Below are positions 1,627-64,000 of a stretch of DNA of 64,000 nucleotides, one piece after another. The stretch comes from Nemertoderma westbladi (taxonomy: Eukaryota; Animalia; Xenacoelomorpha), in the NCBI GenBank assembly GCA_032718475.1, contig JAUCBJ010006043.1, positions 1,759 to 65,758 of the forward strand, written 5' to 3'. The notes under the pieces were generated by a model, which was not told where the DNA came from, did no database searches, and saw nothing but the letters and a program-made list of their open reading frames with translations. The translations under genes were made by a program, and so were the position numbers. Positions within the stretch are counted from its first letter, which is position 1. Every line of letters begins with the position of its first letter.

Positions 1627-1929
1627 GTACATAGTAGTAGTAGTACACCTGTACATATACCAATACTGGTGAACCGGTACAATAAATAACAGTTGACAGT
1701 CAGTCGGGCACTTTGTCAATATTATGATTTGAAAAGTAAGAAATGTTTTTTTGTAAAGAGAATATCTATTTTAATTAAAATATTGTTGAATCCAACCAAT
1801 CTATATTGTTGTTTGTAATAATTTTAATGATATGTTTTATTGCATGTCAATATTGACATCTAATATCAATATTGACATGAACGCTGGGTTCTTATGTATA
1901 TTTCACCCCCACCAAATTTATTTAGAGGC

Positions 1930-13629: not shown

Positions 13630-14176
13630 ATTTACGATTATATCCGTTACAAATTAGATCAGTTAATTATAAGTCCAGAAAGTCTGAAACTATAGCGATA
13701 GCAGAATAATTCAGTTTTTTATTTAATTCAGTTTATTAAATAACATTGCTATATAGACATCTATCATCTTATTGCTAATACATTCAGCATTTACAGTTAC
13801 TATAGCTATACATTAATATCCAACCAGTTTTTTATGACTTTTTTGTCCTTTTCTTTTTTCCAATTCTTTTCTTTAGACTTTTTTATACCTTTTTTTGTCT
13901 TTTTTCATTTCATTATTATTTCATCTCATTTTATTTATTTCCACATATATTTCATCACATTTATTTCCACCATTTATTTCACATTTGTTTATTTCCACAT
14001 CATCATTGGGGTTATAGCCCCCCGGCTATCATCATTTGTTATAAGCGCAACACCAGGGTGCGCATCATTACATTTTCATCATCATACGCGTCACCATTCA
14101 GGTTTATAGTAGAGTTGTCTGATCCTTTTCATCATTTCCAACTACATTCAATCATCTTCTTTGGTTAATCTTTGTC

Positions 14177-29829: not shown

Positions 29830-30104
29830 AAGGTAATGCTCGACCACTCACTAACAGACTAAAGTCCACAGATTTACAAAAATACTTGGGAGTCCTGTAG
29901 AGAACATGACATTGGTGATTGGTTTGTCAACACATTAATTCAACACATTACCCTTTCTGTCTTTGAGACTATTATCATGTAATCTTTAGTCAATCAATGT
30001 GCAATGCAATGCAATGTGCAATGCAAAGTGTGTGCAAGGGAATTGCCATAAAGGGTGAAGGAATATTGTAAGGGGATGGTGATGTTTTAGATGGAAATAA
30101 ACAA

Positions 30105-30633
30105 TGTTAGCTTATTCAATCCCGCTAACACCCCATAAAGTTAAGCCGATAAGCAATATTGGGGGCCACGAGATTGGGTAATCACCAACTCGTGTCACCC
30201 CAACAAAATGGGAAGGAGAAACACAATAAGGGTAAGGGGCCAAACCCCTAACAGAGAGAGAACAGGTGGAGTGAACGGGAACACTCCAAAGGGTGCCAAC
30301 AAGGGTATCAACCAATCAGAGGGGGGAAAGGCATCGATTAGGTAGAGTAACAAGGCCAACCCATGCAATATAGCCAGTTGGCAGTAATCATTTTACTCAG
30401 TTATCTCAGTATCATATTGGTGCTAGTTAGGTTAGTTAGTTTAGCTAGGGAAGGACCGGGACTTTAATTACCGTATCCCACCTTCCGTGTACGACATCAT
30501 ATATCTATATCTGTATCTTATACCTGAACATTATACGTGACAAACAACGTAAACCCTTTCACTCTTCACACACGGCGGGGACGCGTGAATTAACAAACCG
30601 GATAAACCGGGATTCTCCCTGGATCCCGTCACA
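30105..30633 (+). repeat. E2 5' LTR
   Basis: Matches 48663-49191; about 8 substitutions counted by eye. Confidence 0.95.
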
Positions 30634-30728
30634 GTAATTAAACCCGTCGGTGGCACAGTAATTAAATCCGAGCTGCCACCCCAGCTAGCTACCAGTGACT
30701 ACCAACCTCCAATCTAAAGTTAAAGGAG

Positions 30729-35767: not shown

Positions 35768-36030
35768 TATAGCGTACTCATGGTTTTAGAGAATACTATA
35801 GTGATTCAATGTATTAAAGATTCCACTAGGTGGTGTTAGCGATGTAAAAGTTTGATTCTTTGCCAAGTTGTGTAGTAGTTATTCAATGGTATATTGTTTT
35901 TTCTATTGTTGTTGTGGAGTTAACCTATTGCAAGTATTCAATATGTAAGTTAATTAAATTGTTTTCAAGCTAATAAATTTATCATTTTATTTTATACATA
36001 ATTTGTGATCAAAGAGATAAGATCACTAAA

Positions 36031-36041
36031 TGGCGCCCGAT
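36031..36041 (+). promoter_or_regulatory. tRNA-Lys-type primer-binding site of the nested element
   Basis: TGGCGCCCGA directly after the 5' LTR. Confidence 0.85.
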
Positions 36042-36252
36042 ATAAATTTAAATAACTGTATTCAATATTTTAATTAACTGAGATATTATAATTGAATTAT
36101 TTTAATGGAAAATAATTAACTATAATGGATCTGTAATGGAACAGAGGAGATTTGACTCTGACAAACATGAGAAACGGGAACTGACGTCAATCAAGAGTGT
36201 TAAGCATAAGGTGAGTCACAAATAGAGTGTTACATGTGTCAACATCGATTCA

Positions 36253-39200
36253 ATGGCAACTAAATTACGCAATAAGCGTGCTGGAATCAAAAGTTACTTG
36301 AAACAGTTGATGGCAAAAAAGTATGAGGAATTGTCTAGCATCGATGTTGAAGCAGCGTTAGAGTCAACTCAAAAACGGTTACAAATAATTTTAGACCTAG
36401 ATGATGAGATATTGAGTGAAATAGATGAAGATCTAGTAGAAGAGGAAACTTTAAAAAATTCAAACTATGTACTGAATGTTGAGTATTTCATTGTCTATCT
36501 AAAAAATATTCTAGGTATTGGTTTAAAATCCAAACCATTCACAAGTAGTCCCGCCATTATTGGTGGAGATTCTGAAGTCAATACAACGAAACGTGTTACT
36601 AAGTTACCAAAGTTAGAGTTAAAGAAATTCAATGGAAAAATTACCGAATGGCAAGGCTTTATAGAGAGTTTTGATTCTGCAATTGGTACAAATAATTCTT
36701 TAAATGGAGTGGATAAATTCAATTATTTAAAAACTCTTTTAGAAGGCCCAGCTTTATCGGCAATCCAAGGATTATCTTTATCAGAAGATAATTATCACGT
36801 TGCACTAACCACTCTTAGAAATCGCTATGGTCAAACAGAAGTAATAGTGAATGCACATTTGGAATTAATTGTTAATTACCCAAGATTTTTCAATTGTGAT
36901 GACGCAAAGAAATTTCGTGCGTTTTATGATTTTTTAAATATGCATGTTTTACAACTTGAATCATTAGGAATTTCGTGCGAAAACTATGAATTGGTAATTT
37001 TTCAAAAGATCATGACAAAATTACCAGACGACATTAAATTAAAAATGGGTCGAGATTTAGAATCAAAGACAGATATCAATTTACTTTTAAAACATTTAGA
37101 ACAAGAGGTAATATTAAGAGAGAGATTGAGTGCATATGCAGAAATGTCGAGAACTGGATCAACTACAAAAGACAAGGAAACGAGTAAAACTTCAATCCAC
37201 ACAAATAACACTGCTGGCACTTACCACAATGAGTCAATTAATCAAATTTCAACAATAGCAGCAACAATGAGACCCCCCCAGCATCAAAGTTTTTATCCGA
37301 GTTCCAAGTATTCCAAATCAAATTTGTGTTGTGTATTGTCACGGGAGTCATTATGCTGATTTATGTGATGTATTTACAAATGTAGAATCGCGTACAGTAC
37401 ATCTACGTAAAGAAGGTCGGTGCTTTAATTGTTTAAGAAAGGACCACGATGCTACAAATTGTATTTCTAAAAAGTGCTGTTACTTTTGCAAGAAACATCA
37501 CCATTCGTCATTGTGCTATAAACATTTTAGAACACAAAAACCAGCTGAGAGTAGCATGTGTAATAGAGATCAAATTCAAAAACCCAAATTGGAAGCAGGT
37601 AAGAAAGCTGAGAATAAAATAAATTCAGGAAATACAACGTCACAGCTGCTAATTCCTAATGCAAGCAACTCAAACTCAAATGCGATGTCAATTATTCTAC
37701 AATTAGCTCGAGGTAATATATCGAATGACGATGATATCTCTAATGTTCAAAAAGTAAATAGATTTTTTGACAAAGGCAGCCAACGAAGTTTTATATCAAC
37801 GAAATTGGCCAATAATTTATCCTGTACTGTAATTGGTAAAGAAAATATTGAAGTTAATTCATTTGGAGATAAAATAGTTGAAATATCATGTCCTATTGTT
37901 GAACTTTATTTATTTGGAAAAAATGGTGAAAAGCTACATTTAAGTGCATTAGTATATGACAAAATATGTGGTTCTATCCATGCTGATGAAGTTGAAATAA
38001 ACAGATATAACCATTTACGAGATTTAGATGTTGCATACCCTATTGAAGGAGGTGTGTTCAATGTTGATATATTAGTAGGACTCGATCACTATTGGAAAAT
38101 CGTACAGGATGACATTTTAAAGGGAGATGGAGGTCCTATAGCAATGAGTAGCATAATAGGTTGGTTAATATCAGGTCCAAAATCAACCGAACCAATATTA
38201 AATATAGAAGAGAATGAGTTCAATGAGACAAGTTCAACTCACAACTTGTTGTGTTCCATTGATTCAACTGAGTCACAAATTCAAATTATTGGTTCAAACT
38301 TAAATGTGGAAGAGAAATCAAATTCAATGGTGGATGAGTTCCAACAATTTTGGGAGACCAGCATCAATAAAGATTCTGAATCAGATTCTAGTATTATAAT
38401 TCAAGAGTTAACAAATTCAGCAAAATATGACGAGACAAATAAACGATGGACTGTTGCAATACCATGGAAAGATAATATTCATAAGCTTTTAGATAATTAT
38501 GGATTAGCAAAGAAAAGACTCATAACATTACTCAAAAAGTTAAATACCGATCCAAAGTTATTCAAAATGTATAAGGATACATTAGAAGAACATATACGGC
38601 TAAATATGATTGAGGTCATTCCACATAATGAGATCTATTCAACCAAAAATATCGTATATTACATACCTCACTTTGGAGTCCTTGACGAAACGCGTTTAAC
38701 AACAAAACTCCGTGTTGTTATGAATGCATCACAGAATGATAAGAATGGTCTTTCATTAAATAAGTGTATTTATAATGGGCCAAATCTCTTACCACTTATT
38801 ATAGATATGCTTCTGAGATTAAGATCCTACAAAATAGCAATTGTAGCGGATATTGCAAAAGCCTTTTTGCAAGTAGCAGTGAATAAAGAACAATGTGACA
38901 CCTTGCGTATACTTTGGATTGATGACTCGGGAAATATTATACATCTTCGCTACGTGAGGTTGGTGATGGGAGTCGGATCAAGTTCATTCTGTTTGAATGC
39001 CATTATTAAGATTCACATTGAGAAATTCAAACACCTTGCACCTGATTTCATTAAAAAATTGCTTCGTGACATCTATGTTGATGACTTAACAACAGGGGAG
39101 AACACAGTGGAATCAGCAATTCAATTATATAATCAATCAAAACAAATAATGTCAGAGGGTAATTTTGAACTGAGAAAATGGAAGAGTAATGACCCTGCTG

Positions 39201-41745
39201 TTATGGCACATATAAATAATGTAGAACAATTTGAGCCACAACCACGAGAGGATTTCAATGATAGTTATGCAAAAGCAACATTGGGACCATCTGCAAGCTC
39301 TGAAATTAACAACACCACGAAAGTTCTTGGATTAACATGGAAATATGATGTAGATAAATTCATGTTTCATATTTCAAACCTACCGCACCAACTAGATGCA
39401 ACCAAGAGGAACTTACTCAAATTTTCGGCACACATATATGATCCCTTGGGAATATTGAGCCCATTTACTATTCAGATCAAAATACTATTTCAAGAACTAT
39501 GTATTTCTAAAATAGATTGGGATGTTCAATTGGAAGGTCAACATTTCAATAAATATAAGAAATTCTACTCCGACTTAAGATTTTTAAAAAAATGATGAAT
39601 TCTTATTTCCCCGATATTGTCTAAGCCCTCACCATAATGACAGTATATCTCAAGTAACTTTGCATATATTTGGGGATGCTTCAGCGAAAGCATTTGCAAC
39701 AGCAGTTTACATTAGAACAGAAACTAATAACGAGGTTGAAGTCAATTTATTGGCTGCTAAAAGTAAAGTTGCCCCTATACAGAAAACAAAAAACAACTTC
39801 ACCTGCACTCCACGTCTTGAGCTGCTCGCAGCAGTTCTTTGTATAGATATCCATAATATTATTATCAATGCATATAATAACGTATTAAAAATTTTCAAAG
39901 TCTACTTCTGGTCCGACAATCGGACAGTTTTATGTTGGATAAAGAATGATACTGACTATGTGGCTTTTGTTCAAAATCGAGTTTCCAAGATCAGACATTT
40001 CTCAAACCCATCACAATGGAACCACTGTCCTGGATGTGAGAATCCGGCTGATCCCCCATCAAGAGGTACTTGCGCCAAAGAGTTACTTTCACATCCCATT
40101 TGGCTTAATGGTCCAAAATGGTTAGCTTCACCAGAAAAGTTCTGGCCACATTCAAATGAGGAGGGAATGCTAACCGAAGATTATTATAAAGAGGTAAAAA
40201 AGAAAACAAACTTTCCAGTTTGTATAGTATCAGTATCAAACAAACAACCAATTTTTGATGTAACAAGATACTCAACATTAAACAAAGTGATTCGTATTAC
40301 ACATATTATATTTAAATTCCTACAAAATGTGAGTTCATCCAAGTGTTGTCCAACATTAACATCAATAAGTCTCTCTCCAGAACAATATTGGATTAAAATT
40401 ATACAAGAAGAACATTTCCCCCACGAATTGGAATATCTCCATTCTAAAAGTGGATCGTGTCCGCAGAAGGTACATCAATTGGGTTTAGAACTAGATTCCC
40501 ATGGAATAATAACTTGCAAAACGAGATTAGAGAGTGCCGACTTACCTTATGCCATGAAACATCCAATATTGTTACCTAGAGCAAAAGATTCTTATTTTAC
40601 TAAACTACTAATTGAACAAATACATGTAGATGTATTACATGCTGGGACATCTGGAACGTTAAGCCATACTAGAGAACAATTCTGGATTCTCGAGGGTAGA
40701 CGAAGTGTGAGGAGCTCAATATCAAATTGCAAGCATTGCAAAAAAATAGTTGGAAAATCATACCCCACTCCACTTCTTCCTCCACTTCCAATCGAGAGGA
40801 TATCTGAATGTTTACCTTTTATATGTACTGGTGTTGATTTTGCTGGTCCCTTAAATGTCAAGCGAACCAGCAACAGGGGAGAAAATGGAGTTATAGAAAA
40901 ATATAAAGCATGGATTTCGATATTCACCTGCGCAAGTACACGTGCAGTTCACCTTGAAGTTGCTGAGGATCTAACTGGAGAAGGATTTTTAAGTTGTTTT
41001 CGTCGATTTGTTGCTCGAAGGTCTTGGCCAGAACAAATGTGGTCAGACAATGGATCAAATTTCAAAAGTAACACTGTCAAGAAATTTATGGAAAAACACA
41101 ACATTAGATTCGAGCACATTGTCGAGAAAGCCCCTTGGTGGGGTGGACTGTGGGAACGAATAGTAAAGATGATAAAAGAGAATTTACAAAAAGTGTTGGG
41201 ACGCTCATTACTAACATTGATTGAGTTAATAACAGTTTTATCAGAAATTGAAAGTATACTGAATGATAGACCACTTACATATGTTGATTCCGATCTACAT
41301 AGTCCAACAATATTAACCCCATCTCATATTTTAGTTGGAAAAAGGAATTTCACTAAACCTATCGTTGTGTCTACTACTGAAAGCATACCTGATAGTACCC
41401 AGAAACAAGTACAACAACGCTGGGAGTACATATCTAAATTGCGTAGAAACTTCCAGAAGAATTTCCGAATGACATATTTAACTAGCCTGAGAGAACGTTT
41501 TTGGCCACGATATCAACTGTCGGGTCCAAAGATCGCCAAAGATGATGTTGTACTTATAGAGAATGAAGATGTATCAAACAGAGCGTTGGCGTTTGGGAAT
41601 TATAGACGACCTAATAGAAAGCCGTGATAAAGTGGTTAGAGCGGCAAATGTAAGAACTATTACTCAAGGAAAGTTGCCTAAACCGATATATATAAAGCGG
41701 CCGATTCAAGCCCTATATCCATTGGAGATTAACTGTAATGATTAG
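36253..41745 (+). pseudogene. pol: gag-pol of the nested BEL, three frameshifts
   Basis: LPKLELKKFNG; CCHC knuckles; DKGSQRS protease; YVDD; FGDAS; VDFAGP/SDNG/WERIV integrase; frameshifts at ~37330, ~39590 and ~41575. Confidence 0.92.
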
Positions 41746-42402
41746 ATTTATTAAATTGTCTAATTAGAAATGTTAATTATTGAACTAAGTGTAAAATTAA
41801 CTATTTGTGGGATTCGTAATATTCATACTATATCATATGGTTTTGTTCTAAGTTTTATAATTAAAACAAGGTTTAATTAAGAATTTTAACTTGAGATTTA
41901 TAGTGAAGTGAAGTTTAAGATCTCAAACTGCACTACATAATACGTAAGTTACATTAATTGTATTAACATTTGCGTTAAATTGAAGCTATTCGTATCATTT
42001 ATGTGAGCATGTAAATATTGTATATTATTATTTTTTAGTATTTTGGTGACAGTTATCAATATAGTGATACGAATTGATTTTACATATTGTGTTTCAAAAG
42101 TAAATAAACTTACATAATACAGTTTACAGGGGAGTATAGCGTACTCATGGTTTTAGAGAATACTATAGTGATTCAATGTATTAAAGATTCCACTAGGTGG
42201 TGTTAGCGATGTAAAAGTTTGATTCTTTGCCAAGTTGTGTAGTATTTATTCAATGGTATATTGTTTTTTCTATTGTTGTTGTGGAGTTAACCTATTGCAA
42301 GTATTCAATATGTAAGTTAATTAAATTGTTTTCAAGCTAATAAATTTATCATTTTATTTTATACATAATTTGTGATCAAAGAGATAAGATCACTAAAATC
42401 CC

Positions 42403-46149: not shown

Positions 46150-46645
46150 TAGGTACGCAGTTAGTAGGCAGAAGTTAGTCAGTAAGAAGGTACGTAGTAC
46201 CTAGAGTACGTAGTTAAGAGGTACGTAGTACCTAGAGTTAGTTAGTTAGTTAGGAGGTACGTAGTACCGTTAGTTAGGAGAGAGTTAAAGGGTACGTAGT
46301 ACCGCTAGTTAGGAGAGAGTTAGAAGGTACATAGTACCGTGAGTTAGAGGGTACGTAGTACCGTTAGTTAGAGAGTTAGAGGGTACGTAGTACCGCTAGT
46401 TAGAGAGTTAGAGGGTACGTAGTACCGCTAGTTAGAGAGTTAGAGGGTACGTAGTACCGTTAGTTAGAGAGTTAGAGGGTACGTAGTACCGTTAGTTAGA
46501 GAGTTAGAGGGTACGTAGTACCGTTAGTTAGAGAGCAGTGAGAGGGTACGTAGTACCGTTAGTTAGAGAAGAGTTAGAGGGTACGTAGTACCATTAGTTA
46601 GTTAAAGAGAGCAAGAGTTAGTTAGAAAGTACGTAGTACTAGTTA
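46150..46645 (+). repeat. ~32-bp tandem array with GGTAC-GTA-GTACC hairpin, about 15 copies
   Basis: Unit GGGTACGTAGTACCGTTAGTTAGAGAGTTAGA, between pol and the accessory ORF. Confidence 0.9.
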
Positions 46646-47025
46646 GTGAGAGATAGAGATAGAGGTAGTAGGGTATATAAAAGATATAGATATTAGTTAG
46701 CAGTTAGTAGCGAGAGGGGGGCATATGAGTACAGCTGGGTAAATCGTGTGGCCACGCGACGCATACTGCTGTACTGCACAGGCCCACAGAGTAGGCCAGA
46801 ATGTGGATTAGGAGATAGAATAATCCATAGGCAGTAGCAAGTAATAGGAAACAGTAAGGTAGTAGGATTAAAATCAGATCAAAACAAATAGGATAGATAG
46901 GGCTAAGAAGGGGAACAAATTATGGTAACAGTAATAAGAAAATATAGGCTATTTAACTCAGAAATTCAGAAAGAGATAGGCCATCGAACTGAACTTAAAC
47001 CACCTAAACCCATCACTCATCACGT

Positions 47026-47973
47026 TTGCGCCTTGGCAAGGCACCACCTACTGGTGAGCGATCGGGCAGAGTTCGAGATGGCAGGCAAACTAGATGGGAG
47101 AGGAGAGAAGCAGAAGAGAGGGAGGAGGAAGCTAGGGCGCAGAGCTACGGCTTTGAGGAACAAACGACCTTAGACGAACTTCGTTGGGCTTCGTCAGGGA
47201 GTTCGGGGGAGTCTCTAGGGAAAGAACTGGGGTGGACGGTGGGATCACTGAGACAGTCGACGTCGGGATTGCAAGCGATGCCCATACCAGCGGGCGCCGA
47301 GGGCGATCAACCGCAAAGGAAGCTAGGGGAGCTTGAGGAATGGAGAGTTACGGGCAAGAACCAAGGTGGGAAGGGACATAGTGGGTCCACCGAGATACCG
47401 GGGTTGGGACCACTGCGAGAGGAGGACGAGGACGACGACGAGTTCGGAGAGATGCCGCCCATCGAGAGGATAGGCCACTCGGACACGGACTGGGTTGGCG
47501 GGAGGGTGGTGACGGCCAGTGGGGCGAGAGCCTTCTGGGACAAACCCGGCAAGCGGGCCTGGGTGCACGAGGGGCCGGCGATGGATTTCGCCGGGAGCAC
47601 TATCAGGTTGGGCAAGCAACCGGGGACGGCACCACGGGTAGTATTCGGAGAGACGATGCCCGGGAGGGGCGAGGAGATCGACGTAGACAGGGACGCTAAC
47701 GTCCAGAAGTTCGCCTATCAGCGACTCCACAGACCGCGGAGATCGCTTGGGATGAAAGACGACGTGGGGCGGGAGACATTGGTACTCGGTTGCGACTACT
47801 GTGGGAGACAGACCCACCAGGAAAGGAGCTGTTTGTACCGGTTCCAGAAAGGGACCAGCTGTCTCTACTGCCACGAGACGAGCCACAGGATGGGAGCGTG
47901 TCCACGGTTGCAGAACCGATGTCCGAAGTGCAACTTTCGGGGACACCACGGACGCCAAGGAGGGATGGACTGA
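47026..47973 (+). CDS. E2 accessory ORF with three zinc-knuckle motifs (possibly truncated)
   Basis: CDYCGRQTHQERSC and CLYCHETSHRMGACPRLQNRCPKCNFRGH, matching the E1 and E4 accessory motif; start codon uncertain. Confidence 0.7.
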   Translation: MRLGKAPPTGERSGRVRDGRQTRWERREAEEREEEARAQSYGFEEQTTLDELRWASSGSSGESLGKELGWTVGSLRQSTSGLQAMPIPAGAEGDQPQRKLGELEEWRVTGKNQGGKGHSGSTEIPGLGPLREEDEDDDEFGEMPPIERIGHSDTDWVGGRVVTASGARAFWDKPGKRAWVHEGPAMDFAGSTIRLGKQPGTAPRVVFGETMPGRGEEIDVDRDANVQKFAYQRLHRPRRSLGMKDDVGRETLVLGCDYCGRQTHQERSCLYRFQKGTSCLYCHETSHRMGACPRLQNRCPKCNFRGHHGRQGGMD

Positions 47974-49267: not shown

Positions 49268-49366
49268 AGATAGATAGATAGATAGATTTATTTATACATT
49301 ATGTAAAAACAATAACAAATACACCAAACAATGTACCGGTATAAAGGTATTGTCCAACATAACACA
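49268..49366 (-). repeat. Extreme 3' end of the 4823-6812 LINE family
   Basis: (GATA)n plus ~80 bp near-identical to ~4838-4913. Confidence 0.85.
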
Positions 49367-49795
49367 TAGACTATGCCTCAGTGAGGCATAGTCTAAGCCT
49401 CAGTGAGTCATAGTCTATGCCTCAGTGAGGCATAGTCTATGCCTCAGTGAGTCATAGTCTATGCCTCAGTGCCCCAGTGAGGCATAGTCTATGCCTCAGT
49501 GAGGCATAGTCTATGCCTCAGTGAGTCATAGTCTATGCCTCAGTGCCTCAGTGAGGCATAGTCTATGCCTCAGTGCCTCAGTGAAGCATAGTCTATGCCT
49601 CAGTGAGTCATAGTCTATGCCTCAGTGCCTCAGTGAGGCAGAGTCTATGCCTCAGTGAGGCATAGTCTATGCCTCAGTGCCTCAATGAGGCATAGTCTAT
49701 GCCTCAGTGAGGCATAGTCTATGCCTCAGTGCCTCAATGAGGCATAGTCTATGCCTCAGTGAGTCATAGTCTATGCCTCAGTGAGGCATAGTCTG
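49367..49795. repeat. Minisatellite, ~22-bp unit
   Basis: CATAGTCTATGCCTCAGTGAGG repeats with GCCTCAGT sub-duplications. Confidence 0.9.
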
Positions 49796-49862
49796 TGTCA
49801 GGTCTTAAATGAGAGTCTTACAAATTCGAACGTCAACGAACAAATTCGATGGTTACTGTTAC

Positions 49863-49932: not shown

Positions 49933-50195
49933 GGCAGTTTTCGTTCGGTCAGCAATAGGCCTAACGTTGCAAAATGTAGTATTATTGCCTAGTAACCAAT
50001 TCATGGCTACCATATGGTTTTCACTTTGAGACATTTCGCCCTCTAGCGGCAGACTGGGGAACTTCAGACTACTCTGTGACTCCGCAAAAAATATAGCCCA
50101 TATTGTAATAGATACCGATTGAGGGGTCAAAATTAAGTAATAATATATCTAAATAAGTCTCAAACATCTTGCCTCATGGCTCGCCCCTTAGAACT

Positions 50196-51325
50196 TGTTC
50201 GCGCTTTTAGACCTAATTTAGGTGTCTTTTAGTTTGTAAATCGACTTTAGCCTACGACGAGTATTTGATACACTACATTAGCCGAAGCCAGCCTATGCGC
50301 GATCATTCACCCGCTGGATATACCCGGGAGACTGGATTCGGGGGCTCTGACCTTATTGCGGTGTAGGCCTATTGTATTATTCGATTGATCGTTAATATAT
50401 AATCTCTGACAAATATTATTCACTTTTGGGAAATATTAACAGTTCCCTTTGGACGTGGCGCTCTAAATATATAAACAGAGCTATGACTTACACTAAACAC
50501 AACGGGATGGCTAATGATTCACGTATAAGGCGCATTCTTTAGGAGATGCTTTGTTATCTGTCACAGTCATGCACACTACCGGTACCGCACAATACTGCAC
50601 ACTGATCTGCCGACCTTCACTAATTTTAGTCACATATAAAGAGAACAGCAATTGACCCATGTAGTAACTATGAAATAGCATTAGATTCACTCCAAAACCA
50701 ATATCATATAAGTCGCAATTGCTATATGTAACCGGTCTCTTACCTTCAGTATATCAAGAAGATGGGGTTTTATGATTATTTCTTGATATTATCCAAATAT
50801 AACAATTTTCCATCAACAGATACAATTAATAACCGACAGTAAATAGCAGTAAAATAATGCGGTGAAAGATATGTATAGCATTTGACAGGCAGGATAACAG
50901 TTATACGTTCCGGTAATCAAAGCCGTTCTAATGTTTTGGCTAAAGTCTGAAACAGAATAATTCCATAGCCGATGTTCATGGCATCAGGAAAACCAACACA
51001 CTGAAACCTGTGGGCTGTTGTAGGCAGCTTTCAACACAAAGAGAAATAGCTCTCATTGGCAGAACTCCAGATTCTATAGGTTCCACGAACGTCTAAATGC
51101 CAAACCTCCCTAGCCTTTGCAGCCCATAGCCAACACAAGGCTAAATCGCTCTGATTGGTCGATCATTGTTCTGATTGGTTAATCGAACAGAACAAACAGC
51201 AAATCGGCCAATCAGCCAGCAGAATGCATCACTCGAGCAAGGCAGTTTTAGAGTATTTGAGCGCATTGAGGGAAAACTGGATTGCGGAGAAAAAGGGCCA
51301 GTTACATCCTGCAAAAGCTTTTACA
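50196..51325 (-). repeat. E3 3' LTR (1130 bp)
   Basis: Near-identical to 60174-61335 apart from two short indels. Confidence 0.93.
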
Positions 51326-51403
51326 CCGCTCCCAGAAAATGGGATTTAATTCTATAAAATATAAAAAATCACAGTTTCTAAAATATAAAAATACTCTAAA
51401 CAG

Positions 51404-52730
51404 TCAGTCTCTCCCGCGCGGACGGCGTTTACGCAGTTTTTTGAGGCTAGCGAGAGTCCTTTTCTCTTTGGGGCGAGCCACTTTACTAGGAGGGCTATAA
51501 CTCCTGGGCGAAGGGTGCAATACCATTGCATCAGAAGGTTAGGGTTACGGTCTGTGTCTCGTCCATTTCGATATGCTTCTCCTCGAGCTGATTTTCCTCC
51601 GCTTGTCGTTGGATGTGTCCGTCCAAAAATTCTCGCGGAGAATAGGGTCGTCCAAGTTCGATAACTTCTTAGAGATTCTGGTCACTCTGGTGACAGGTTG
51701 TATCGGTGTTAAACCGGGACGATGGCAAGGGTCAAACGGCGACATTAAATGTCCGCATCCCAATCCGGCTAGGTAGGATGGGCTAATATCTAGGAAGACC
51801 ACAACCGGGGTGCCACCGACTAACTCTTCAGGTAACACTAGATCTTTGAACAGTGAGTACAGCTCGGGAGGATCCGTCATACTAATAGGATCAAGAGTCT
51901 GAGGTCTCACTAGGGAATGAGGAGGTCTGATCGAGTATTCCGGAACTCTGATCATTGGTTTATTTAAGGATCGTCTGAGTCGAACGAGCGTAGGTGATAC
52001 GTCAAACAAATTTCGCTCGAAACTCCCGTAAGTATAGCGAGTAAAACCGTGTTTAGTGCAACGTCTCCGCGGATGTTTAGGTCTTTCCGTTTGTTGGTTG
52101 GGTCTAGGGCACCATCGCAATAATACCAAAGATGCACGTCTTGTAGGGGAAACGCGAGTGATCTCTCTCCAGTTCACAACACTCCCCCATCTGCTCGAAG
52201 CCATCTGGTACAACAGGTAGCGGTCGATCGGCGGTAAGATACATCATAGTGGAACAGAGCCGCTTGAGTTCCACCATGCGGTCATGATGTATACCTTGAG
52301 GATATCGAGTTTCTAGATTCTGTTGACTGGTAATATTGAGATATGTTTCTCTCAAGAATTCCAGATATTTGTTGAAGTCGCTGCGTTTATCCGGCTCTTC
52401 AACATCTTCACTTTCGAGTCGGTTTCGAATAGAATTTTCGTGTTCGAGTCTCAGTTTATCGTTCCGCTTCCGCTGGGTATGATATTTAAATAAAACCATT
52501 TCCCTTTCGGTGTCTATATCGTCCGTATCGTGTAGGTCGATAGGATGACCAGTAGTTAAGAAGTCCATATACGTACCATTACGATGCGTATAGCGAGCGG
52601 TGAATTTTCTATAGTCCAACTCACGCGTGAGCTGCTCTTGGGACATTGGTGGTTCAATATAACGACCATCGTCCTCCGCAGCAGTTGGACCAGCATCGCC
52701 GCGTATTAAGCTATCAACAAACGCCTGCAA
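51404..52730 (-). pseudogene. E3 accessory ORF, frameshifted
   Basis: C-terminal ~45 codons nearly identical to the E4 ORF end (PSDA..LHPSPRSYSPPSKVARPKEKRTLAS.KKLRKRRPR); N-terminal AAEDDGRYIEPP resembles E4 AARVDGILVEPP. Confidence 0.65.
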
Positions 52731-53613
52731 CGGTAGAGTATATCTCCCCTGACACCAAGATCATCTTCTATCAACTCAGTCATATCTGCTATATGAGTTT
52801 ATTAATATTATAATGAGTTTATATTTAGGCTAGCGGGCGTCGCTGCCTACCCCTCTCTGCCCCCGGACAGTGCAAGATCCTCAGCGCTGGTGTACTTTCG
52901 CCGATGTGCCTATCGCCAACGTCGTAGCTGCACAACGACCACAACAACCAGCACGAGTCACTCCACCGTCCGTCCCAAAGGCTTAGATATACTTCAGGTT
53001 CTTACTGGAGTTAGGGCTACTTTCACAATTGCGACTCGCTACTGTAAACACACTTTAGTAGTAACATTCACCTATAAACGCACAAATTCCACACAACTGT
53101 CACAAACCGCACATATTCGGGCCATTTGTCCTTTAGTCAGTGCCTTCCAGAATGCCACGTTATTATTGGGTATCCTGGGATACTAGCAATGTGCTATTTA
53201 TTCCTTATGCTATTCAATGGGCAAGCTTTATTGTTCTTTTAACTCACTTCTAATTCTAGTGTGGTTGTTGCCATGGTGACATTATGGAAAGCTAGCGGTA
53301 GAATTAGGGTAATTCTCATACATACAGATCTGGGATGCTATTTAATAGTAATTATTTAATTCTCAATATTTCTCTTTATACATGATTTTATGAATTTTAT
53401 CGGCTATTGACTATATATTGGAGATTCTCGCACACTAATATACTTAATAGGGTGAATCTCCACTCCCATGATCTATTAATTGGAATCTATTAATTTATGG
53501 AATTTTGGGAATGTTATAAATTGTATAAAAATGACAATTTATCAAATTCATTAAAATATGAATTTAAATTTATTCCCGTAAATTTTATTATTTAATATTA
53601 AATAGACACAATT

Positions 53614-54728: not shown

Positions 54729-57700
54729 CTAGGGGCAATGTCTCCATTGATCTACATTGGAGTTAATATCGTCATTATCTGAGGAGTATGGTGTTCCCTC
54801 AGTTGGGTCGTCAACTTCACTGCTCTCCACTTCCCATTCACTTAATTGATATACCTGTTCTTTTGGTAATCTTTCCATTAGAGTTCTACGGGAAGGGCCA
54901 GTAAAGTACCAACCTACTCTAGTTCTTCCCGCATAGACTTGTAATGGTTGCGGTTGAGCAGGCCGTTTCTCCAATGTCTCAAGCGCTTCATGCCCATTTT
55001 GGCCGATGAGTATTTGCACTCCAGGGTAATCTGTGTTGAATCTAGGTATATTAAGCTGCTGGGTGGAATCGTCCTCATCCCAGTTATAAGGTTCTACTTG
55101 GCTGGTAGCGAAGTTCTTTATCGCCACCATTTTTACTGACCTTATACTATGTTCTCCTAGTTCATCCTGGGGGGTGGACAACGCACCTACATAATAATCC
55201 GCTATTACTGTAGATTTCCAAACCTGCATAATTCCTGACATGTTTAACTTAGTTCGGAACTTGGGTTGTCCAGCAAAGATGTCTTCGGCTAGTTCTTTGT
55301 CGATGAATGTTCCTGTGCTACCGGAGTCAAGGAGGGCGTTCACTATATAACTCCTTTTAGGTCCGTGGACCCTTAATTGCACTACAGGAAATTCACGGAT
55401 TCCTACATTGGAAGTTGGCGCTTTCCAAGATGGTTGTCGATCAGATGTAGTTAGGGTGAGGTCGCAGTCTGTGTCTTTTTCATACGTAAGTGCTCGATAC
55501 ACTGCGGTATTTATCAGGTAACAGGATTCGTTTTCGTTGGAGAATTCGTCCGTATAGAATCCTTCCATCTCAGAACATTGGTCAGTGTCGTTCACATCAC
55601 TGAATTGGACATGTAGTTCGGACTCACTTACCTGACTCGGGCTGTTTCGTTCGAATTCCGTGTGCAACAAGATATGATGTTTTGCGCCGCACTTTGCACA
55701 CCTTGCGTCGGAGTAACAGGTTCGCCGTTGGTGTCCTCGTCTGAGGCAATTATAACACAACCGCTTATCCCACATGACTTCACGTCTGTCCTTTAGTGAT
55801 TTCCTCAGGAATTCATCACACGCACTTAAACGGTGGGGCCCGTCGCACAGCACACATTTTGGTTTGATGTTACTTACCTTACTTTGAGTAACGTTGTGCA
55901 CACTCGTTCTTTCTTCGGGCTTTCTTACATGAATTTTCTTAGGAGACGTAGGAGGAGTTTTTCTTACCTGTTCTCTCCTGTCATTGGTTCGAGACTTGAA
56001 TTTACTTACGTCCTTAGGCGCTGTGTTGTCATAGTAAGATCTTTCAGTGTCTTTCCCGCTGTCTTCCTCTTGAGAAGCCTGGCTTTCGCCATCGTCTGTA
56101 TAACACACTGGTATTACCTTTCTCCTAGAAACGGGTTTCTCACTTACCTTATTTTCCGGTGTCTTCTCTCTGGACTGTTTTAGAAGCTGTAATTTTACCT
56201 CTCCATCTAAGAATGACATGAGATCAGGCATGGTAGGGTCTCTTCGTTGTTGTTCCATCATATATAACACTTTCTTGTCCCAGCGTGTACCTACTCCACC
56301 CTTGGGCAAAGTAGATGCTAAGGCTCCTACAACCATAGAATTCTGGTATTCATGAGACTTACCTAACCAATCTAGTTGTCTACAGATCTCTTGAATCTCA
56401 TCGGAAAACTCTATAATCCCGCTGCTAAGAAACTTTCGGGGCGCCATTAATTTCGCATATAAATACCTAGCTATGTTATTCCTATTACCATACCTGATGT
56501 TTAGGGTATCCCAAACTTGTCTTAATCCATCGGGATGTCCAATAAACTTTAACGCCATTAACTTGGGAGATCCTTCCAAGCACTCGATGAGGAATCTAAG
56601 TTTCTCTCCGTTAGATAGCACAGAGTTCTGTATGTTATCTTTGTAATATTCATTAAAAGGTAACCATTTCATCTCATCTCCATTGAACTTGACGATCTCT
56701 CCCACCTTTACCGCTTGACGGGCTTCGGTTCTAGCCATTTGACGCGTAAAACTTTCTTGGGCCATCGTATTATTTAATATCGAGTTATCGGTATATAAAT
56801 TTCTCGGATTATTATCAAGTCTATATGGAATATCACTGTCAACAGGTTTATAATTACCCTTAATAGGGTTTACTATAGGAGTTTCTACTTCACTAGCAGT
56901 ATAGATGCATGTAGGCTCCACACCTTGCGCATGAAATACTTCAGACCTAACAGGTTGACACATTGTTACAGGGGGTGGTGGTATACCCTTTTGTGTATTT
57001 ACTAATTTATCGAGTTCTAACGCGATACTTTGCTGCACTTCTTGCAACGCTAACCTACCCTCTCTTACTGCTCCCTTTAACTGCTGAACAGTCCCTTCCA
57101 ACTCCCGGACCTGCTGGGAGGAACATTTACAATGTTCCCTCAGCTGCCCGAGCAGGAGACCCATCTCCCGTCGTCCCTCAGCTACCCACTCGACCGCCGA
57201 AGAGGGAGTCGCCAACATAGTAGCGGGCAAGCGAGAGACGACGGGCGATAAATTCTTGATATCTCGCTCGGCGTCCAGGATGGGTTCGGACTCGGGAACA
57301 GTCCTACTGGGCACAGGTAGTTTTGTGCTGTGCAAAGGGAATTTAGAGGTAGGTTCTGGGAGTACAGGTGTCTCTATCACCGAAGGGGTGGCTTCGAGAA
57401 CAGGCCTAATTATTTCAGGCTCATCTACTATAGTAGGGAGTCTTTCTACTGTAATAATTTGGTCTGTGGGTTCTGTACCACAGCGAGTTCTGTAATACAC
57501 TGGATAGTCTACACTATCCAGTTGCATTCTCACCTCAGGAGGTACCGTCCGCTTGAGCATCCGTCTACGTCCGCTTGAACGAGATTTATTACCTCTACCT
57601 TCGGGATCTCTTATATCACCTTCATCGGAGGAGGCAAATCCCTGTCTTCTGGTTTGTTTCTTCAAGTAATCTTGTTTCGCCTGAAGGTTTTCCAGCTCTA

Positions 57701-57896
57701 GTTGGGTAGTCGCTTCAGACGCCTTCCGTTCTGCTTCTGCCACTGCCTCTGCCGCTTTTCTTTCCGCTTCTGCCGCTGCTACTTTTCTTTCCGCTTCTTT
57801 TCTGTCTTCTATCCTTTCAAGACACTGTCCAAGTCGAAGACTCATTCTAACACCTTTCAAAAGACTATCTGACAGTGCCCGTTTTGTGTCAGACAT
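54729..57896 (-). CDS. gag: E3 gag-protease (1055 aa), followed by deletion of RT/RH/IN
   Basis: IVKFNGD; CVLCDGPH, CYNCLRRGH, CAKCGAKHHILLH; LLDSGSTGT; jumps to post-RNase H WRHCP...IASRG. Confidence 0.88.
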   Translation of the reverse strand: MSDTKRALSDSLLKGVRMSLRLGQCLERIEDRKEAERKVAAAEAERKAAEAVAEAERKASEATTQLELENLQAKQDYLKKQTRRQGFASSDEGDIRDPEGRGNKSRSSGRRRMLKRTVPPEVRMQLDSVDYPVYYRTRCGTEPTDQIITVERLPTIVDEPEIIRPVLEATPSVIETPVLPEPTSKFPLHSTKLPVPSRTVPESEPILDAERDIKNLSPVVSRLPATMLATPSSAVEWVAEGRREMGLLLGQLREHCKCSSQQVRELEGTVQQLKGAVREGRLALQEVQQSIALELDKLVNTQKGIPPPPVTMCQPVRSEVFHAQGVEPTCIYTASEVETPIVNPIKGNYKPVDSDIPYRLDNNPRNLYTDNSILNNTMAQESFTRQMARTEARQAVKVGEIVKFNGDEMKWLPFNEYYKDNIQNSVLSNGEKLRFLIECLEGSPKLMALKFIGHPDGLRQVWDTLNIRYGNRNNIARYLYAKLMAPRKFLSSGIIEFSDEIQEICRQLDWLGKSHEYQNSMVVGALASTLPKGGVGTRWDKKVLYMMEQQRRDPTMPDLMSFLDGEVKLQLLKQSREKTPENKVSEKPVSRRKVIPVCYTDDGESQASQEEDSGKDTERSYYDNTAPKDVSKFKSRTNDRREQVRKTPPTSPKKIHVRKPEERTSVHNVTQSKVSNIKPKCVLCDGPHRLSACDEFLRKSLKDRREVMWDKRLCYNCLRRGHQRRTCYSDARCAKCGAKHHILLHTEFERNSPSQVSESELHVQFSDVNDTDQCSEMEGFYTDEFSNENESCYLINTAVYRALTYEKDTDCDLTLTTSDRQPSWKAPTSNVGIREFPVVQLRVHGPKRSYIVNALLDSGSTGTFIDKELAEDIFAGQPKFRTKLNMSGIMQVWKSTVIADYYVGALSTPQDELGEHSIRSVKMVAIKNFATSQVEPYNWDEDDSTQQLNIPRFNTDYPGVQILIGQNGHEALETLEKRPAQPQPLQVYAGRTRVGWYFTGPSRRTLMERLPKEQVYQLSEWEVESSEVDDPTEGTPYSSDNDDINSNVDQWRHCP

Positions 57897-59244
57897 ATTT
57901 GATTTGTACAGTTGAATGCCTACTGCTATATTACAGTTAAAGCAAATCTAGTAATTCAGTATCAATTGTTAGCCTAGTGATTAATTACCGATATCGTTAC
58001 TCTATGTAACGTGTTATATATACAATATATTAGAATACCGGTATGCTTATAGTATATATAAGTATTATTACAGACTAGGTTTGTCATAGGATACCGGTAT
58101 GTAATTTCAGCACAAATATATATAAATATATAATAGGCCTATCGTGAATACCGGTATACAGCTTACACTTATAGTATATATATAAGTATAATTACAGACT
58201 AGAATTGATTACAGAATACCGGTATGATTTCAGCCTAAATTTATAGAAATAAATATAATAAGCCTATGGTAAATACCGGTATGTCAATTATTTTGGAATA
58301 ATTTAATTTCTGAATTTTAGGGGTTACTTGGTTACTTTAACTTACTTTATTACCGTTATTTAAGCAGTAGTCCAACTGATATTAAGACCTAATTGTTGTA
58401 TGGCAGGCCTACTATTTTATAAATCGGTTTGAGTTGATTTATAATATATATACCCGTTTTAATGGGTTTTTGTCAATATTTGAAATAAATGTTATTATTT
58501 CTGGGAAAGAGTCACCTCACAGAAGCTGTGCGCTCTCAGTGAAGTGCTACTTGTTGGACACTAAAACAAATAATTATAATTTACCTAAGTTACTTAATAC
58601 TACAAATTACATACAATTCGGGGTGAGATTACAATCTCTAAATAAACACAAAAATTACACGTACGAATTTTTAGGCTAATTTTACAAGAAGTCTACAAAC
58701 CAGCCTAACAAAGGGTTAGATTATCTGGTTATTACAACGGACAGAGTACTACGGTATTTGAAAATAACTAAGCAGTAGTAAATATACTGCGTTGTCCAGA
58801 TAGGAAAATACCACCGTCTGACGACTTATAGCCGTATCGCTATAAGTACTACGTTATGTATCACGGAGTGTTCCTACCTACAGACCTAGAAGTTAATTAC
58901 CGCAGTCTACCAGAACCAACGTGCCTATTAACCACTTTACAACACAAATATACTGCCTATACACTAATTACCTTCGGGAAGCACTGTACACTAAACCCTA
59001 AATTAGGTACAAGTACTTATACAACAAATAATCAGTAGTTAAAATACTTGAACAGCTAAAAGAACCACGGTATCTGCTGGAGTGACCGGGGCACAAAATC
59101 ACCAGTCTTTACCTACGCCAAGCAGCCCTGATGTAGTACCGGGGTTAATTTAACTATAACGGTATATATAACAAGCACAATTACTGTAGGAATAAACTTG
59201 GGGGTATGAATGTTGCGAATAATCGCATAAACTCTGAATAATAA

Positions 59245-59833: not shown

Positions 59834-60173
59834 TCTGAGCAGGCTTACACGTCTTCTGCTCAATATTAGCCTACAGATGAATAAAACTGACAGAAATAAG
59901 TAAACCATACAAAGGAATAAGGGGTGATCAATCCCTAATCCCCTAACAGCCTACAATATACAATATATCACAATCGAAATATACTAGTACCTTTACTGCT
60001 GTAAGTACCGGTTCCGGTGGTTAGGTAGTTAGGCCTACAGGTTACCGGTCGACCGGTACTTTTCAACTTTATTGCTTACTGCAATAAAGAAGCAATAACT
60101 GTTACTGTTCTTACCAGAACAATAGTAAACTGTATTTATTGCCTACACTGCAATCAGAGTTTATAACTGTTAT

Positions 60174-61335
60174 TGTTCGCGCTTTTAGACCTTAGGCAGT
60201 TTAACCCGCCTAATTTAGGTGTCTTTTAGTTTGTAAATCGACTTTAGCCTACGACGAGTATTTGATACACAACATTAGCCGAAGCCAGCCTATGCGCGAT
60301 CATTCACCCGCTGGATATACCCGGGAGACTGGATTCGGGGGCTCTGACCTTATTGCGGTGTAGGCCTACTGTATTATTCGATTGATCATTAATATATAAT
60401 CTCTGACAAATATTATTCACTTTCGGGAAATATTAACAGTTCCCTTTGGACATGGCGCTCTAAATATATAAACAGAGCTATGACTTACACTAAACACAAC
60501 GGGATGGCTAATGATTCACGTATAAGGCGCATTCTTTAGGAGATGCTTTGTTATCTGTCACAGTCATGCACACTACCGGTACCGCACAAAACTGCACACT
60601 GATCTGCCGACCTTCACTAATTTTAGTCACATATAAAGAGAACAGCAATTGACCCATGTAGTACCTATGAAATAGCATTAGATTCACTCCAAAACCAATA
60701 TCATATAAGTCGCAATTGCTATATGTAACCGGTCTCTTACCTTCAGTATATCAAGAAGATGGGGTTTTATGATTATTTCTCGATATTATCCAAATATAAC
60801 AATTTTCCATCAATAGATACAATTAATAACCGACAGTAAATAGCAGTAAAATAATGCGGTGAAAGATATGTATTGCATTTGACAGGCAGGATAACAGTTA
60901 TACGTTCCGGTAATCAAAGCCGTTCTAATGTTTTGGCTAAAGTCTGAAACAGAATAATTCCATAGCCGATGTTCATGGCATCAGGAAAACCAACACACTG
61001 AAACCTGTGGGCTGTTGTAGGCAGCTTTCAACACAAAGAGAAATAGCTCTCATTGGCAGAACTCCAGATTCTATAGGTTCCACGAACGTCTAAATGCCAA
61101 ACCTCCCTAGCCTTTGCAGCCCATAGCCAACACAAGGCTAAATCGCTCTGATTGGTCGATCATTGTTCTGATTGGTTAATCGAACAGAACAAAGAGGCCA
61201 TACGTACAGCAAATCGGCCAATCAGCCAGCAGAATGCATCACTCGAGCAAGGCAGTTTTAGAGTATTTGAGCGCATTGAGGGAAAACTGGATTGCGGAGA
61301 AAAAGGGCCAGTTACATCCCGCAAAAGCTTTTACA
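60174..61335 (-). repeat. E3 5' LTR (1162 bp)
   Basis: TG...CA termini, TSD, match to the 3' LTR. Confidence 0.93.
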
Positions 61336-61636
61336 GAACTCTTAAGCAATATAACTTCATAGTTTTGCGGATTGTAAATAACAAAGCTAGAGAAGATGTT
61401 AATTTTCAAATAATACGCCCTCTAGCGGCAGACAGGGGAACTTCAGACTACTCTATGACTCCGCAAAAGATATGGCCTATGCCGTAGCAGATGCCGATTG
61501 GGGGGGGGGGGGGGGTCAAAATTAAGTAATAATATATCTAAATAAGCCTCAAACATCTTAGAACTCTTAAGCAATATAACTTCATAGTTTTTAAGTAAAA
61601 CTGGTAAATGAGATGTGTTAATTACGCATACCTCGC

Positions 61637-62865
61637 TGTTCGCGCTTTCGAAGACCTTTAGCAGTTTAACCTGCCAAAATTTATATGTCTTTTAGTTAAT
61701 TAAAACCACTTTAGCATACGACAATAATTTATGCTAATACGCAAAACATTAGCCGAAGTCAGCCCATGCGCGATCATTCACCCGATGGATCTACACCCGG
61801 GAGACTGAATTCGGATGCTTGAATTGTATTATTACAGTGTAAGGTTGCAGTGTATACCTAATGTATTATTCGATAGATAGTTAATGATTAATCTCTGACA
61901 GGTATTATTGGCTTTCGGGAAATATTAACAGTTCCTTTAGGACGTGGCGCTTTATCTATTTAAACAGAACTAGGACTTATACTAAACGCAACGATACTGC
62001 TTGGGATTGAAGTATAAAGCGTATTCTTTAGGAAATACTTTGTTACCAATCACAATCATACACACTATTCTGCCGACAGTCAGTACATTTGATCACACAT
62101 AAAGAGAGCAGTAATTGACTCACGTAGGGTCTGCTAAATAACATTGGATTCAATACACACCACATTAATATAAATCGCAATTGTTATATATAGCCGGTCT
62201 CTCTAACCTGTAGTGTTATCAAGAAAATTGGGAATTGGGTGATTTATCCGTATTATCCAAATAGCAATATTTCCATCAACAAATATTTACAATTAATAAC
62301 TGACGGTAAAATAACAGTACAAACAATATGATTAATGAGTTAGGTGATATTCGATTCGTGAGATTAGGTAACAGTTTATACTTTCGATAATTCAAGCAGT
62401 TTACGGTACAGCAGTATCTATCCAAAATGCCGGTGTTTCTGGCTTAGACAGCAATAACAACAAAGTATCAAGAAAAAACAGTAAGACTGAACACTCTCCT
62501 TATGATCGGCAGAAAAGCTACACGTCGACAGGAAAAACCGCCCTGATTGGCCCAAGCCAAACAAAGAACCACGCGGCCAATGGCTGTTTCCATGTCAGCA
62601 ACCAGCTGCTAGATGTCGTAATATGAATCATCACGGCTAAACTGTGAAAGGTGGTTGATGCATTACAAGTTTTTTGTCTTACCATGTCCGCTAAAACACG
62701 TATATAGCAGAATGATTTTTATGTCCGTTAAAACACCTGTAAAGGTACCTTGCGGGCGAGGGGAATATATATACAGTTAGAAAACCTTTTTTAGAGTATT
62801 CCAGCGCCTGGGGGGAACTGGCCAGCATAGGCAAACGTATCAGTTATCCCACAAAAGCTTTTACA
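61637..62865 (-). repeat. 3' LTR of E4, a diverged relative of E3
   Basis: Same termini (TGTTCGCG...AAAAGCTTTTACA on plus) and same PPT; clearly alignable to the E3 LTR over the first ~750 bp. Confidence 0.85.
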
Positions 62866-62943: not shown

Positions 62944-64000
62944 TTAGTCTTTCTTGCGCGGACGGCGTTTACGCAGTTTTTTGAAGCTAGCAAGAGTCCT
63001 TTTCTCTTTGGGGCGAGCCACTTTACTAGGAGGGCTATAACTCCTGGGTGAAGGGTGCAATATGATTGCATCAGAAGGTATGGGATTGCGATCGGTATAT
63101 CCGCCGGTCGAAGTACCGGGTTGATGGACATCAACGTCCGGGGAGAGGGGTCTAACGGCTTTGAGAGCTCGTTTCAAGACAGCCGCTCTTACGGGTCCTT
63201 TACGAGTGGTCTGAACGAGGGCCGTGGGTGGACCATAGGCAGTTAGAAACTTCCTTGGTTTAATGGTTCTTTCTAACTCGCGTTCGCGGGCTCGATACTC
63301 GTAAGGCCGTCGATATACCTCTTGTAACTCAGGGTGTGAGTTGACGAATAAGTCTCCATAGGCAGGGTCTTGACGGATAAAGTTTATTAAGTTGTAAGAC
63401 TGGATGTCACTCGGATTAATGCTCCTGAGAAATTTACGCACATATTTGGTTGAAATACATTCTCCAACGCGCTTCAATAGTTCATAACTTGATAGGCGCG
63501 ATTTCTGCTCGACGGAGGCAAACAAATATGGATGGAACGCATAAACTCCTTCATAGGCGCGTCCGGGATAATAGCGATGGCGTGAGTCACAATGTAAATC
63601 AGCGTTCGCTTCCCAAGCTCTTATATAACGTAGTACAATCATTTCATCTACGCTCTCTAAATCATGGTTAAAGGGACAATCAAAGCTGGCGTGTCCTTTT
63701 AATTGACAATGATGGCATTGAGTCATAAATTGGGGGCAGACGGCAAAAATGTGCAAATTATTAAGCCGACAATATGCACAATAGATTTCCATCGACGGTT
63801 GCTCGTGGAAATAAGAACAAAGATCGTTGGTGTCCATAGACGTAATAAGGGTGATCTTTAATTCCATAAAAAGAGTTCTGTAAAGGTCTAGCGCGTATGT
63901 TGACATCGTGTACCATACGACGGACAAGATCCGCTCGATTGTCCGGAGGTTCAACGAGTATACCGTCAACTCGAGCGGCCTCGATTGGCGGACGCTGTAA
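62944..64000 (-). CDS. E4 accessory ORF with tandem zinc knuckles (runs off the window; probable frameshift near 63800)
   Basis: CAYCRLNNLHIFAVCPQFMTQCHHCQLKGHASFDC; WEANADLH resembles E1 FETYANSH; basic C-terminal tail. Confidence 0.7.
   Translation of the reverse strand, partial: YSVRQSRPLELTVYSLNLRTIERILSVVWYTMSTYALDLYRTLFMELKITLITSMDTNDLCSYFHEQPSMEIYCAYCRLNNLHIFAVCPQFMTQCHHCQLKGHASFDCPFNHDLESVDEMIVLRYIRAWEANADLHCDSRHRYYPGRAYEGVYAFHPYLFASVEQKSRLSSYELLKRVGECISTKYVRKFLRSINPSDIQSYNLINFIRQDPAYGDLFVNSHPELQEVYRRPYEYRARERELERTIKPRKFLTAYGPPTALVQTTRKGPVRAAVLKRALKAVRPLSPDVDVHQPGTSTGGYTDRNPIPSDAIILHPSPRSYSPPSKVARPKEKRTLASFKKLRKRRPRKKD

Follow-up and report, generated by a model that had tools for sequence, protein, structure and literature searches.

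BEL/Pao elements in the analyzed window

The window analyzed here is a 64,000-nt stretch of the Nemertoderma westbladi assembly (GCA_032718475.1, contig JAUCBJ010006043.1, positions 1,759 to 65,758). It is animal DNA that is dense in BEL/Pao LTR retrotransposons and LINEs, as indicated by Pfam matches to DUF1759, Peptidase_A17, DUF5641 and RVT_1. The element at the center of this study, E3, has the following features, all on the minus strand:

60174–61335, 5′ LTR, TG...CA, 1162 nt
60891–60902, candidate self-primer (LTR nt 434–445), a contiguous exact complement of the PBS
60162–60173, PBS position, 12 nt, no TGG, immediately after the 5′ LTR end
60095–60105, second PBS-like copy, after another AACA, with 10 Watson-Crick pairs and one G·U to the primer site
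54732–57947, gag-protease frame, 1072 aa, with DUF1759, Cys/His knuckles and a protease-like motif
51326–51333, polypurine-tract position GGGAGCGG, adjoining the 3′ LTR
50196–51325, 3′ LTR, 1130 nt, with a copy of the primer site

E3 is flanked on both sides by the target-site duplication GAACT, and its two LTRs differ by 11 substitutions in 1130 aligned nt. With its paired TG...CA LTRs, target-site duplication and polypurine tract, E3 presents the structural features of the Belpaoviridae, with which it shares TG...CA LTRs of 0.2–1.2 kb, a DUF1759 gag and a PPT (PMC8742986). The Gag matches DUF1759 (E = 2e-12), there are also matches to the gag-protease regions of BEL/Pao loci, and the Pfam matches are of BEL/Pao type, not Ty3/gypsy type. 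From the Belpaoviridae pol order PR-RT-RH-IN, E3 retains only the protease and, 3′ of the gag-protease frame, an end fragment of RNase H. Because comparison with 120 related proteins gave no RT or integrase match inside E3, we regard it as non-autonomous; E3 is a young BEL/Pao element without most of pol.

The E3 family is very high-copy and diverse in the contigs of four DNA runs (22,175 contigs in X1), and no relatives were found among viral contigs. E3 and the neighboring, related element E4 lie in or beside copies of one and the same short repeat of the host (50037–50195, 61336–61636), which hints at a target preference or a tandem structure.

The E3 PBS pairs with its own LTR

On the sense strand the 5′ LTR ends in GCGCGAACA at 60174 and is followed directly by ATAACAGTTATA, with TGG absent. 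Plus-strand positions 60162–60173 and 60891–60902 are exact reverse complements over 12 nt, as the preliminary description had claimed, and the complement recurs in the 3′ LTR at 50894–50905, where it had been placed at about 50894. The claim that pairing stops exactly at the LTR boundary was likewise borne out: the perfect helix ends there on one side and at 12 nt on the other, past which a weak 4-bp extension is possible beyond a 3 × 3 loop. The putative primer thereby has its 3′ end exactly at the LTR boundary. The available passages of PMC7175516 place the RNase H cut of Tf1 between bases 11 and 12; by extension from that work, the predicted E3 cut would fall between 60891 and 60890.

Whereas the ICTV account describes the Belpaoviridae as primed by host tRNA, through an 18-nt PBS for tRNA-Arg or tRNA-Gly, and their replication as poorly understood (PMC8742986), E3 and E2, a second BEL/Pao element in the window, have no such PBS and no TGG after their LTRs. 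No further TGG site was found after the E3 LTR, and no tRNA genes were found in the window.

The significance of the match, on which the preliminary description had made its claim depend, stood up to two composition-aware comparisons. A match of 12 nt or more arose in 3 of 20,000 dinucleotide-shuffled E3 LTRs (about 1.5e-4) and, for window positions sampled together with an upstream stretch of LTR size, in 18 of 17,946 cases (about 1e-3). None of 1,000 shuffled E3 PBSs reached 12 nt. On the same strand, no match from the PBS start is longer than 6 nt, which makes the 12-nt match specific to one strand, and host flanks behind 3′ LTRs gave matches of 4–7 nt only (11/11).

Second PBS-like copies, each behind an imitation of the LTR end (..ACA), lie about 69 nt downstream in E3 and 24 nt downstream in E2; other E3-family copies in the contigs lack about 70 nt at this place. 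Joints at 60162–60163 were considered as a sign of constraint and rejected, because the duplicated PBS-like copy at 60095–60105 explains them; joints from 60186 to the E4 LTR, with sides under 30 letters, were left out. No splice junction was found that lengthens the primer of E3 or E2.

Predicted transcript layout and folding

Motifs that bear on the layout of the E3 transcript, all on the minus strand, are:

near 61175 and 61155, CCAAT boxes, about 260–270 nt upstream of the primer site, motif only
60996–61001, TCAGTG resembling an initiator, about 100 nt upstream of the primer site, motif only
60734–60743, candidate splice donor AAG/GTAAGAG, consensus-like, downstream of the primer site

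A similar motif order is present in E4 and E2, where an initiator-like motif precedes the primer site by about 110 and 65 nt, respectively. If the CCAAT and initiator motifs mark the RNA start, the E3 primer lies inside R, unlike that of Tf1, whose RNA begins with its 11-nt primer in the source passages available to us. By these motifs the E3 primer is probably about 100 nt inside the transcript and not at its 5′ end. The primer and PBS form a duplex of −11.4 kcal/mol when taken alone. ViennaRNA folds of R-U5-PBS give the E3 helix a probability of 0.03 or less across its 717-nt loop, which splicing from the candidate donor at 60740 could shorten; the corresponding probability for E2 is 0.3–0.4.

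Other elements in the window

Four further sites allow comparison with E3:

30463–30471, plus strand, E2 candidate self-primer, 9 nt, contiguous, inside LTR 30105–30633
30634–30642, plus strand, E2 PBS position, no TGG, with a second copy at 30658–30666
36031–36040, plus strand, PBS of element N, TGG tRNA-type, no self-complement (k = 4)
62368–62380, minus strand, site in the E4 3′ LTR (62865–61637) homologous to the E3 primer; the E4 PBS lies beyond the window

E2 had been described as pairing at its LTR boundary in the same manner. It does carry a 9-nt match there with letters unlike those of E3, but the match is weaker, being reached in 89 of 20,000 shuffles and at 123 of 18,126 background positions. 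In Pfam the E2 pol shows Peptidase_A17, then integrase and DUF5641, with RNase H preceding integrase. Element N (35768–42397, plus strand) is a BEL/Pao element nested in the protease region of E2; its 263-nt LTRs (35768–36030 and 42135–42397) begin TA and end AA, not TG...CA, and its target-site duplication is ATCCC. Because N has a TGG site and a self-match of 4 nt only, it serves as an internal negative control. The E4 site keeps 11 of 13 columns aligned to the E3 primer site, from which it differs by one substitution and one insertion, and this difference predicts a different PBS for E4.

Several observations concern the remaining content of the window. The 3′ LTR of a further element, E1 (9755–10854, minus strand, 1100 nt), has internal tandem repeats of about 95–217 nt, and its 5′ LTR is outside the window. 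Frames with no Pfam match lie between pol and the 3′ LTR in E1 (11029–13653, minus strand), E2 (47008–47973, plus strand), E3 (52104–52760, minus strand) and E4 (62944–63999, minus strand); those of E1 and E2 have a common Cys/His-rich stretch, and that of E4 is also Cys/His-rich. An inverted duplication (17597–19494 and 27913–29832; 1.9 kb, 97.5%) contains BEL/Pao integrase fragments and a piece of LINE RT. Satellite-like arrays are found at 1921–3852 (unit about 52 nt), at 46173–46658 inside E2 (unit 32–35 nt) and at 49300–49819 (22/8-nt units with inverted symmetry).

PBSs without TGG pair with their own LTR in loci with delimited LTRs

We surveyed 80 BEL/Pao loci from metagenome contigs, of which 34 contain long-range direct repeats; the repeat of L018 is a tandem coding repeat. 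Both LTR ends are visible in ten loci, and nine were kept after L060, whose repeat is not LTR-like, was dropped. The LTR end of L023 was set by eye where its two copies diverge, after its match was known. All seven of these nine loci that lack TGG pair over 11–15 nt with their own LTR. Six of the seven do so only across a GT-AG junction in that LTR (11–15 nt), with introns of 76–186 nt and a helix that begins 0–4 nt past the LTR end; the other pairs contiguously over 11 nt. The two TGG loci have 4-nt matches only, and one of their PBSs is identical to a tRNA-type PBS quoted in the available part of PMC5445492.

To this set we added E2 and E3, giving nine non-TGG elements, and built a 12 × 12 swap matrix that also holds three TGG elements. 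Along the diagonal, the nine non-TGG elements pair over 9–15 nt and the three TGG elements over 4 nt. Off the diagonal, the 132 foreign LTR/PBS pairs reach at most 9 nt, and 9 nt once. Shuffled PBSs attained the observed value in 0 of 1,000 trials for eight of the nine non-TGG elements and in 7 of 1,000 for E2. Each non-TGG PBS thus pairs with its own LTR only, and the proposal that pairing, not letters, is common to the families is sustained. The matrix also supports the earlier reading of tRNA-independent self-priming, although priming itself is inferred, with all the evidence coming from DNA sequence.

The PBS begins with GT in L004, L005, L012, L072, L075, L003, L007 and L019, which are all the loci with the helix right at the LTR end. 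The E2 PBS likewise begins with GT; that of E3 begins with AT and its second copy with GT.

Further locus sets

For ten loci only the LTR start is known. Strict settings gave matches in three of the ten, and settings relaxed post hoc gave eight spliced matches and one contiguous match, in a set where two rows repeat a family and one is not an LTR. Under the relaxed settings, shuffled nulls reached 1–7 in 200 and the opposite strand gave none.

Among the 60 remaining loci, 26 had enough upstream DNA to form a held-out set, which was scanned with settings fixed beforehand. It yielded 2 spliced and 3 contiguous matches against 0.22 and 0.34 expected; both spliced matches are kin of earlier ones. 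The other 21 of 26 had no match, and many of them may lack a whole LTR. A fixed scan of twelve terminal-overlap contigs gave 1 match where 0.8 was expected, so there was no enrichment. Five of these contigs were afterwards read by eye: L003 and L042 each pair contiguously over 11 nt, L019 pairs over 14 nt spliced with a donor outside the scan pattern, and L010 and L050 showed no pairing. The held-out scans gave weaker results.

An intron inside the primer

Two close relatives differ by the presence of an intron within the primer:

L007:480–870 and L003:1–200, intron presence/absence pair, precise 171-nt GT..AG insert

L007 and L003 have 95% RT-RH identity and a common PBS, and the insert lies inside the primer of L007 only. 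In L072, the 5′ piece bears the acceptor and the 3′ LTR is without the intron. These cases indicate that split and ready-made primers both occur among close relatives, and, as L003 and L007 differ by the exact presence of the intron, the contiguous primer of E3 is probably an intron-less form.

By the same analogy, intron loss probably gave rise to the contiguous primers of both elements, E3 and E2. An intron-bearing ancestor of the two is suggested by analogy only, since the trees leave their placement unfixed. E2 is nested among the spliced-primer loci under LG+G4, but a mixture model, which raised a long-branch warning, places it outside them; long branches lead to both E2 and the E3-like pol fragment. 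No intron-bearing form of the E3 primer itself was seen.

A wider proposal is that, in a broad animal BEL/Pao lineage, an internal self-primer assembled by the spliceosome from two LTR exons replaces tRNA, so that splicing would gate reverse transcription and E3 and E2 would be escapees by intron loss. We hold the odds on this proposal to be about even.

A self-priming model and its alternatives

As E3 has no tRNA site and its PBS pairs exactly with its own LTR, as in many relatives, self-primed copying is likely. We estimate a probability of roughly three in four that E3 primes reverse transcription from a 12-nt stretch of its own LTR RNA in place of a host tRNA, in the manner of Tf1. By analogy with Tf1, the E3 transcript would fold back and bring LTR nt 434–445 into pairing with the PBS, an autonomous relative would provide in trans the RNase H that cuts 3′ of the paired stretch, and the freed 3′-OH, exactly at the LTR end, would prime a minus-strand strong-stop DNA about 717 nt long. 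RT would extend from the LTR boundary, and after strand transfer the 3′ LTR would supply anew the stretch upstream of the cut; an intron would be preserved if the 3′ copy is unspliced and precisely lost if it is spliced. In each cycle the PBS would be written anew when the primer is copied during plus-strand synthesis, so that the match stays perfect despite drift of the letters. Weighing against the model are the low probability of the E3 helix in the folds, the 21 held-out loci with no match and the terminal-overlap contigs, in which matches were not enriched.

An alternative is that the helix is real and serves packaging, dimerization or a splicing/translation switch, while a host RNA or a nearby site does the priming. 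Retroviruses use U5-leader stems. Such stems lend this alternative some support (a U5-IR stem is named in the title of one paper), as do the second PBS-like copy further down in both E2 and E3 and the start of the helix 2–6 nt past the LTR end in several relatives. We consider it unlikely, given that the helix sits in the PBS slot, terminates 0–6 nt from the LTR end, is 9–15 nt long and is missing in all three TGG-primed elements, and that E3 offers no alternative TGG site after its LTR. Priming by a host small RNA, a tRNA half or internal tRNA stretch of which the LTR site is a captured copy, has a precedent in the half-tRNA priming described for several copia lineages in the passages available from PMC6317226. 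Against it, the PBS letters vary by family and track the element's own LTR, and a captured DNA copy would not explain why six of seven loci have the complement only across a splice junction. Neither E3 site is covered by any Rfam family; the one Rfam match is at chance level and away from both the primer site and the PBS. We judge this second alternative very unlikely.

The two sites might also agree by chance or through an AT-rich, near-palindromic protein-binding DNA motif (TAAC[AT]GTTA) present in both places. The site is indeed near-palindromic, and its core TAACAGTT occurs 13 times in the window, two strands together. With shuffle and background P values of about 1.5e-4 and 1e-3, and with unrelated, non-palindromic letters in the same slot of E2 and the outside loci, this explanation is strongly disfavored and we give it very little weight.

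Relation to known self-priming elements

On the self-priming reading, E3 works like Tf1, yet it is not a member of the Tf1/sushi group. The C. elegans element Cer7 reportedly encodes its own tRNA-like primer. Self-priming has been described for Tf1 and Tf2 (S. pombe), Tj1 (S. japonicus), sushi and Tcn1, as given in the passages available from PMC7175516, PMC4600332, PMC6317226 and PMC6934838. Like E3, Tf1/Tf2, Tj1 and the Tf1/sushi and Tcn1 chromoviruses (Ty3/gypsy) have no tRNA PBS and carry one complementary to about 11 nt of their own LTR transcript in these passages; the E3 complementarity likewise ends at the LTR boundary, and the helix lengths resemble the 11 nt of Tf1 (PMC7175516, available passages). 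E3 differs in superfamily (BEL/Pao, with a DUF1759 gag) and in its 717-nt loop. Its relatives differ in that their primer spans a GT-AG junction, of which the passages covered for Tf1 make no mention.

The plant Ty1/copia TAR lineage (Houba, Osr-1) has been predicted to self-prime from complementarity in the available part of PMC6317226. Both that prediction and ours fall outside the gypsy group, TAR being plant copia and E3 animal BEL/Pao. The Conserved Hairpin Site of the fungal GalEa copia elements is, like the E3 PBS, a non-tRNA, near-palindromic site directly after the 5′ LTR, but its partner lies 12–41 nt downstream with no LTR complement, whereas that of E3 is in the LTR, 717 nt upstream (PMC5445492, passages available).

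Neither PBS, tRNA nor self-priming turned up in term look-ups in the accessible text of two BEL/Pao surveys (PMC3118150, PMC554778). BEL/Pao self-priming is also absent from the passages covered of PMC8220671, PMC3601003 and PMC5443660, with one self-priming passage of PMC3601003 lying outside that coverage. We found no prior paper on it among the titles and abstract openings searched; subscription journals, Repbase Reports and supplements may hold a mention. Self-priming in BEL/Pao would be a variant of a known mechanism, here predicted in a superfamily described as tRNA-primed.

If this reading is true, self-priming extends to a third superfamily, after gypsy (Tf1/sushi-type) and one copia lineage (predicted), which would explain why many BEL/Pao elements have no recognizable PBS. 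A primer that is internal and often built by splicing would connect splicing with the onset of reverse transcription in a new way, and the elements would no longer depend on host tRNA and might also escape control by tRNA fragments.
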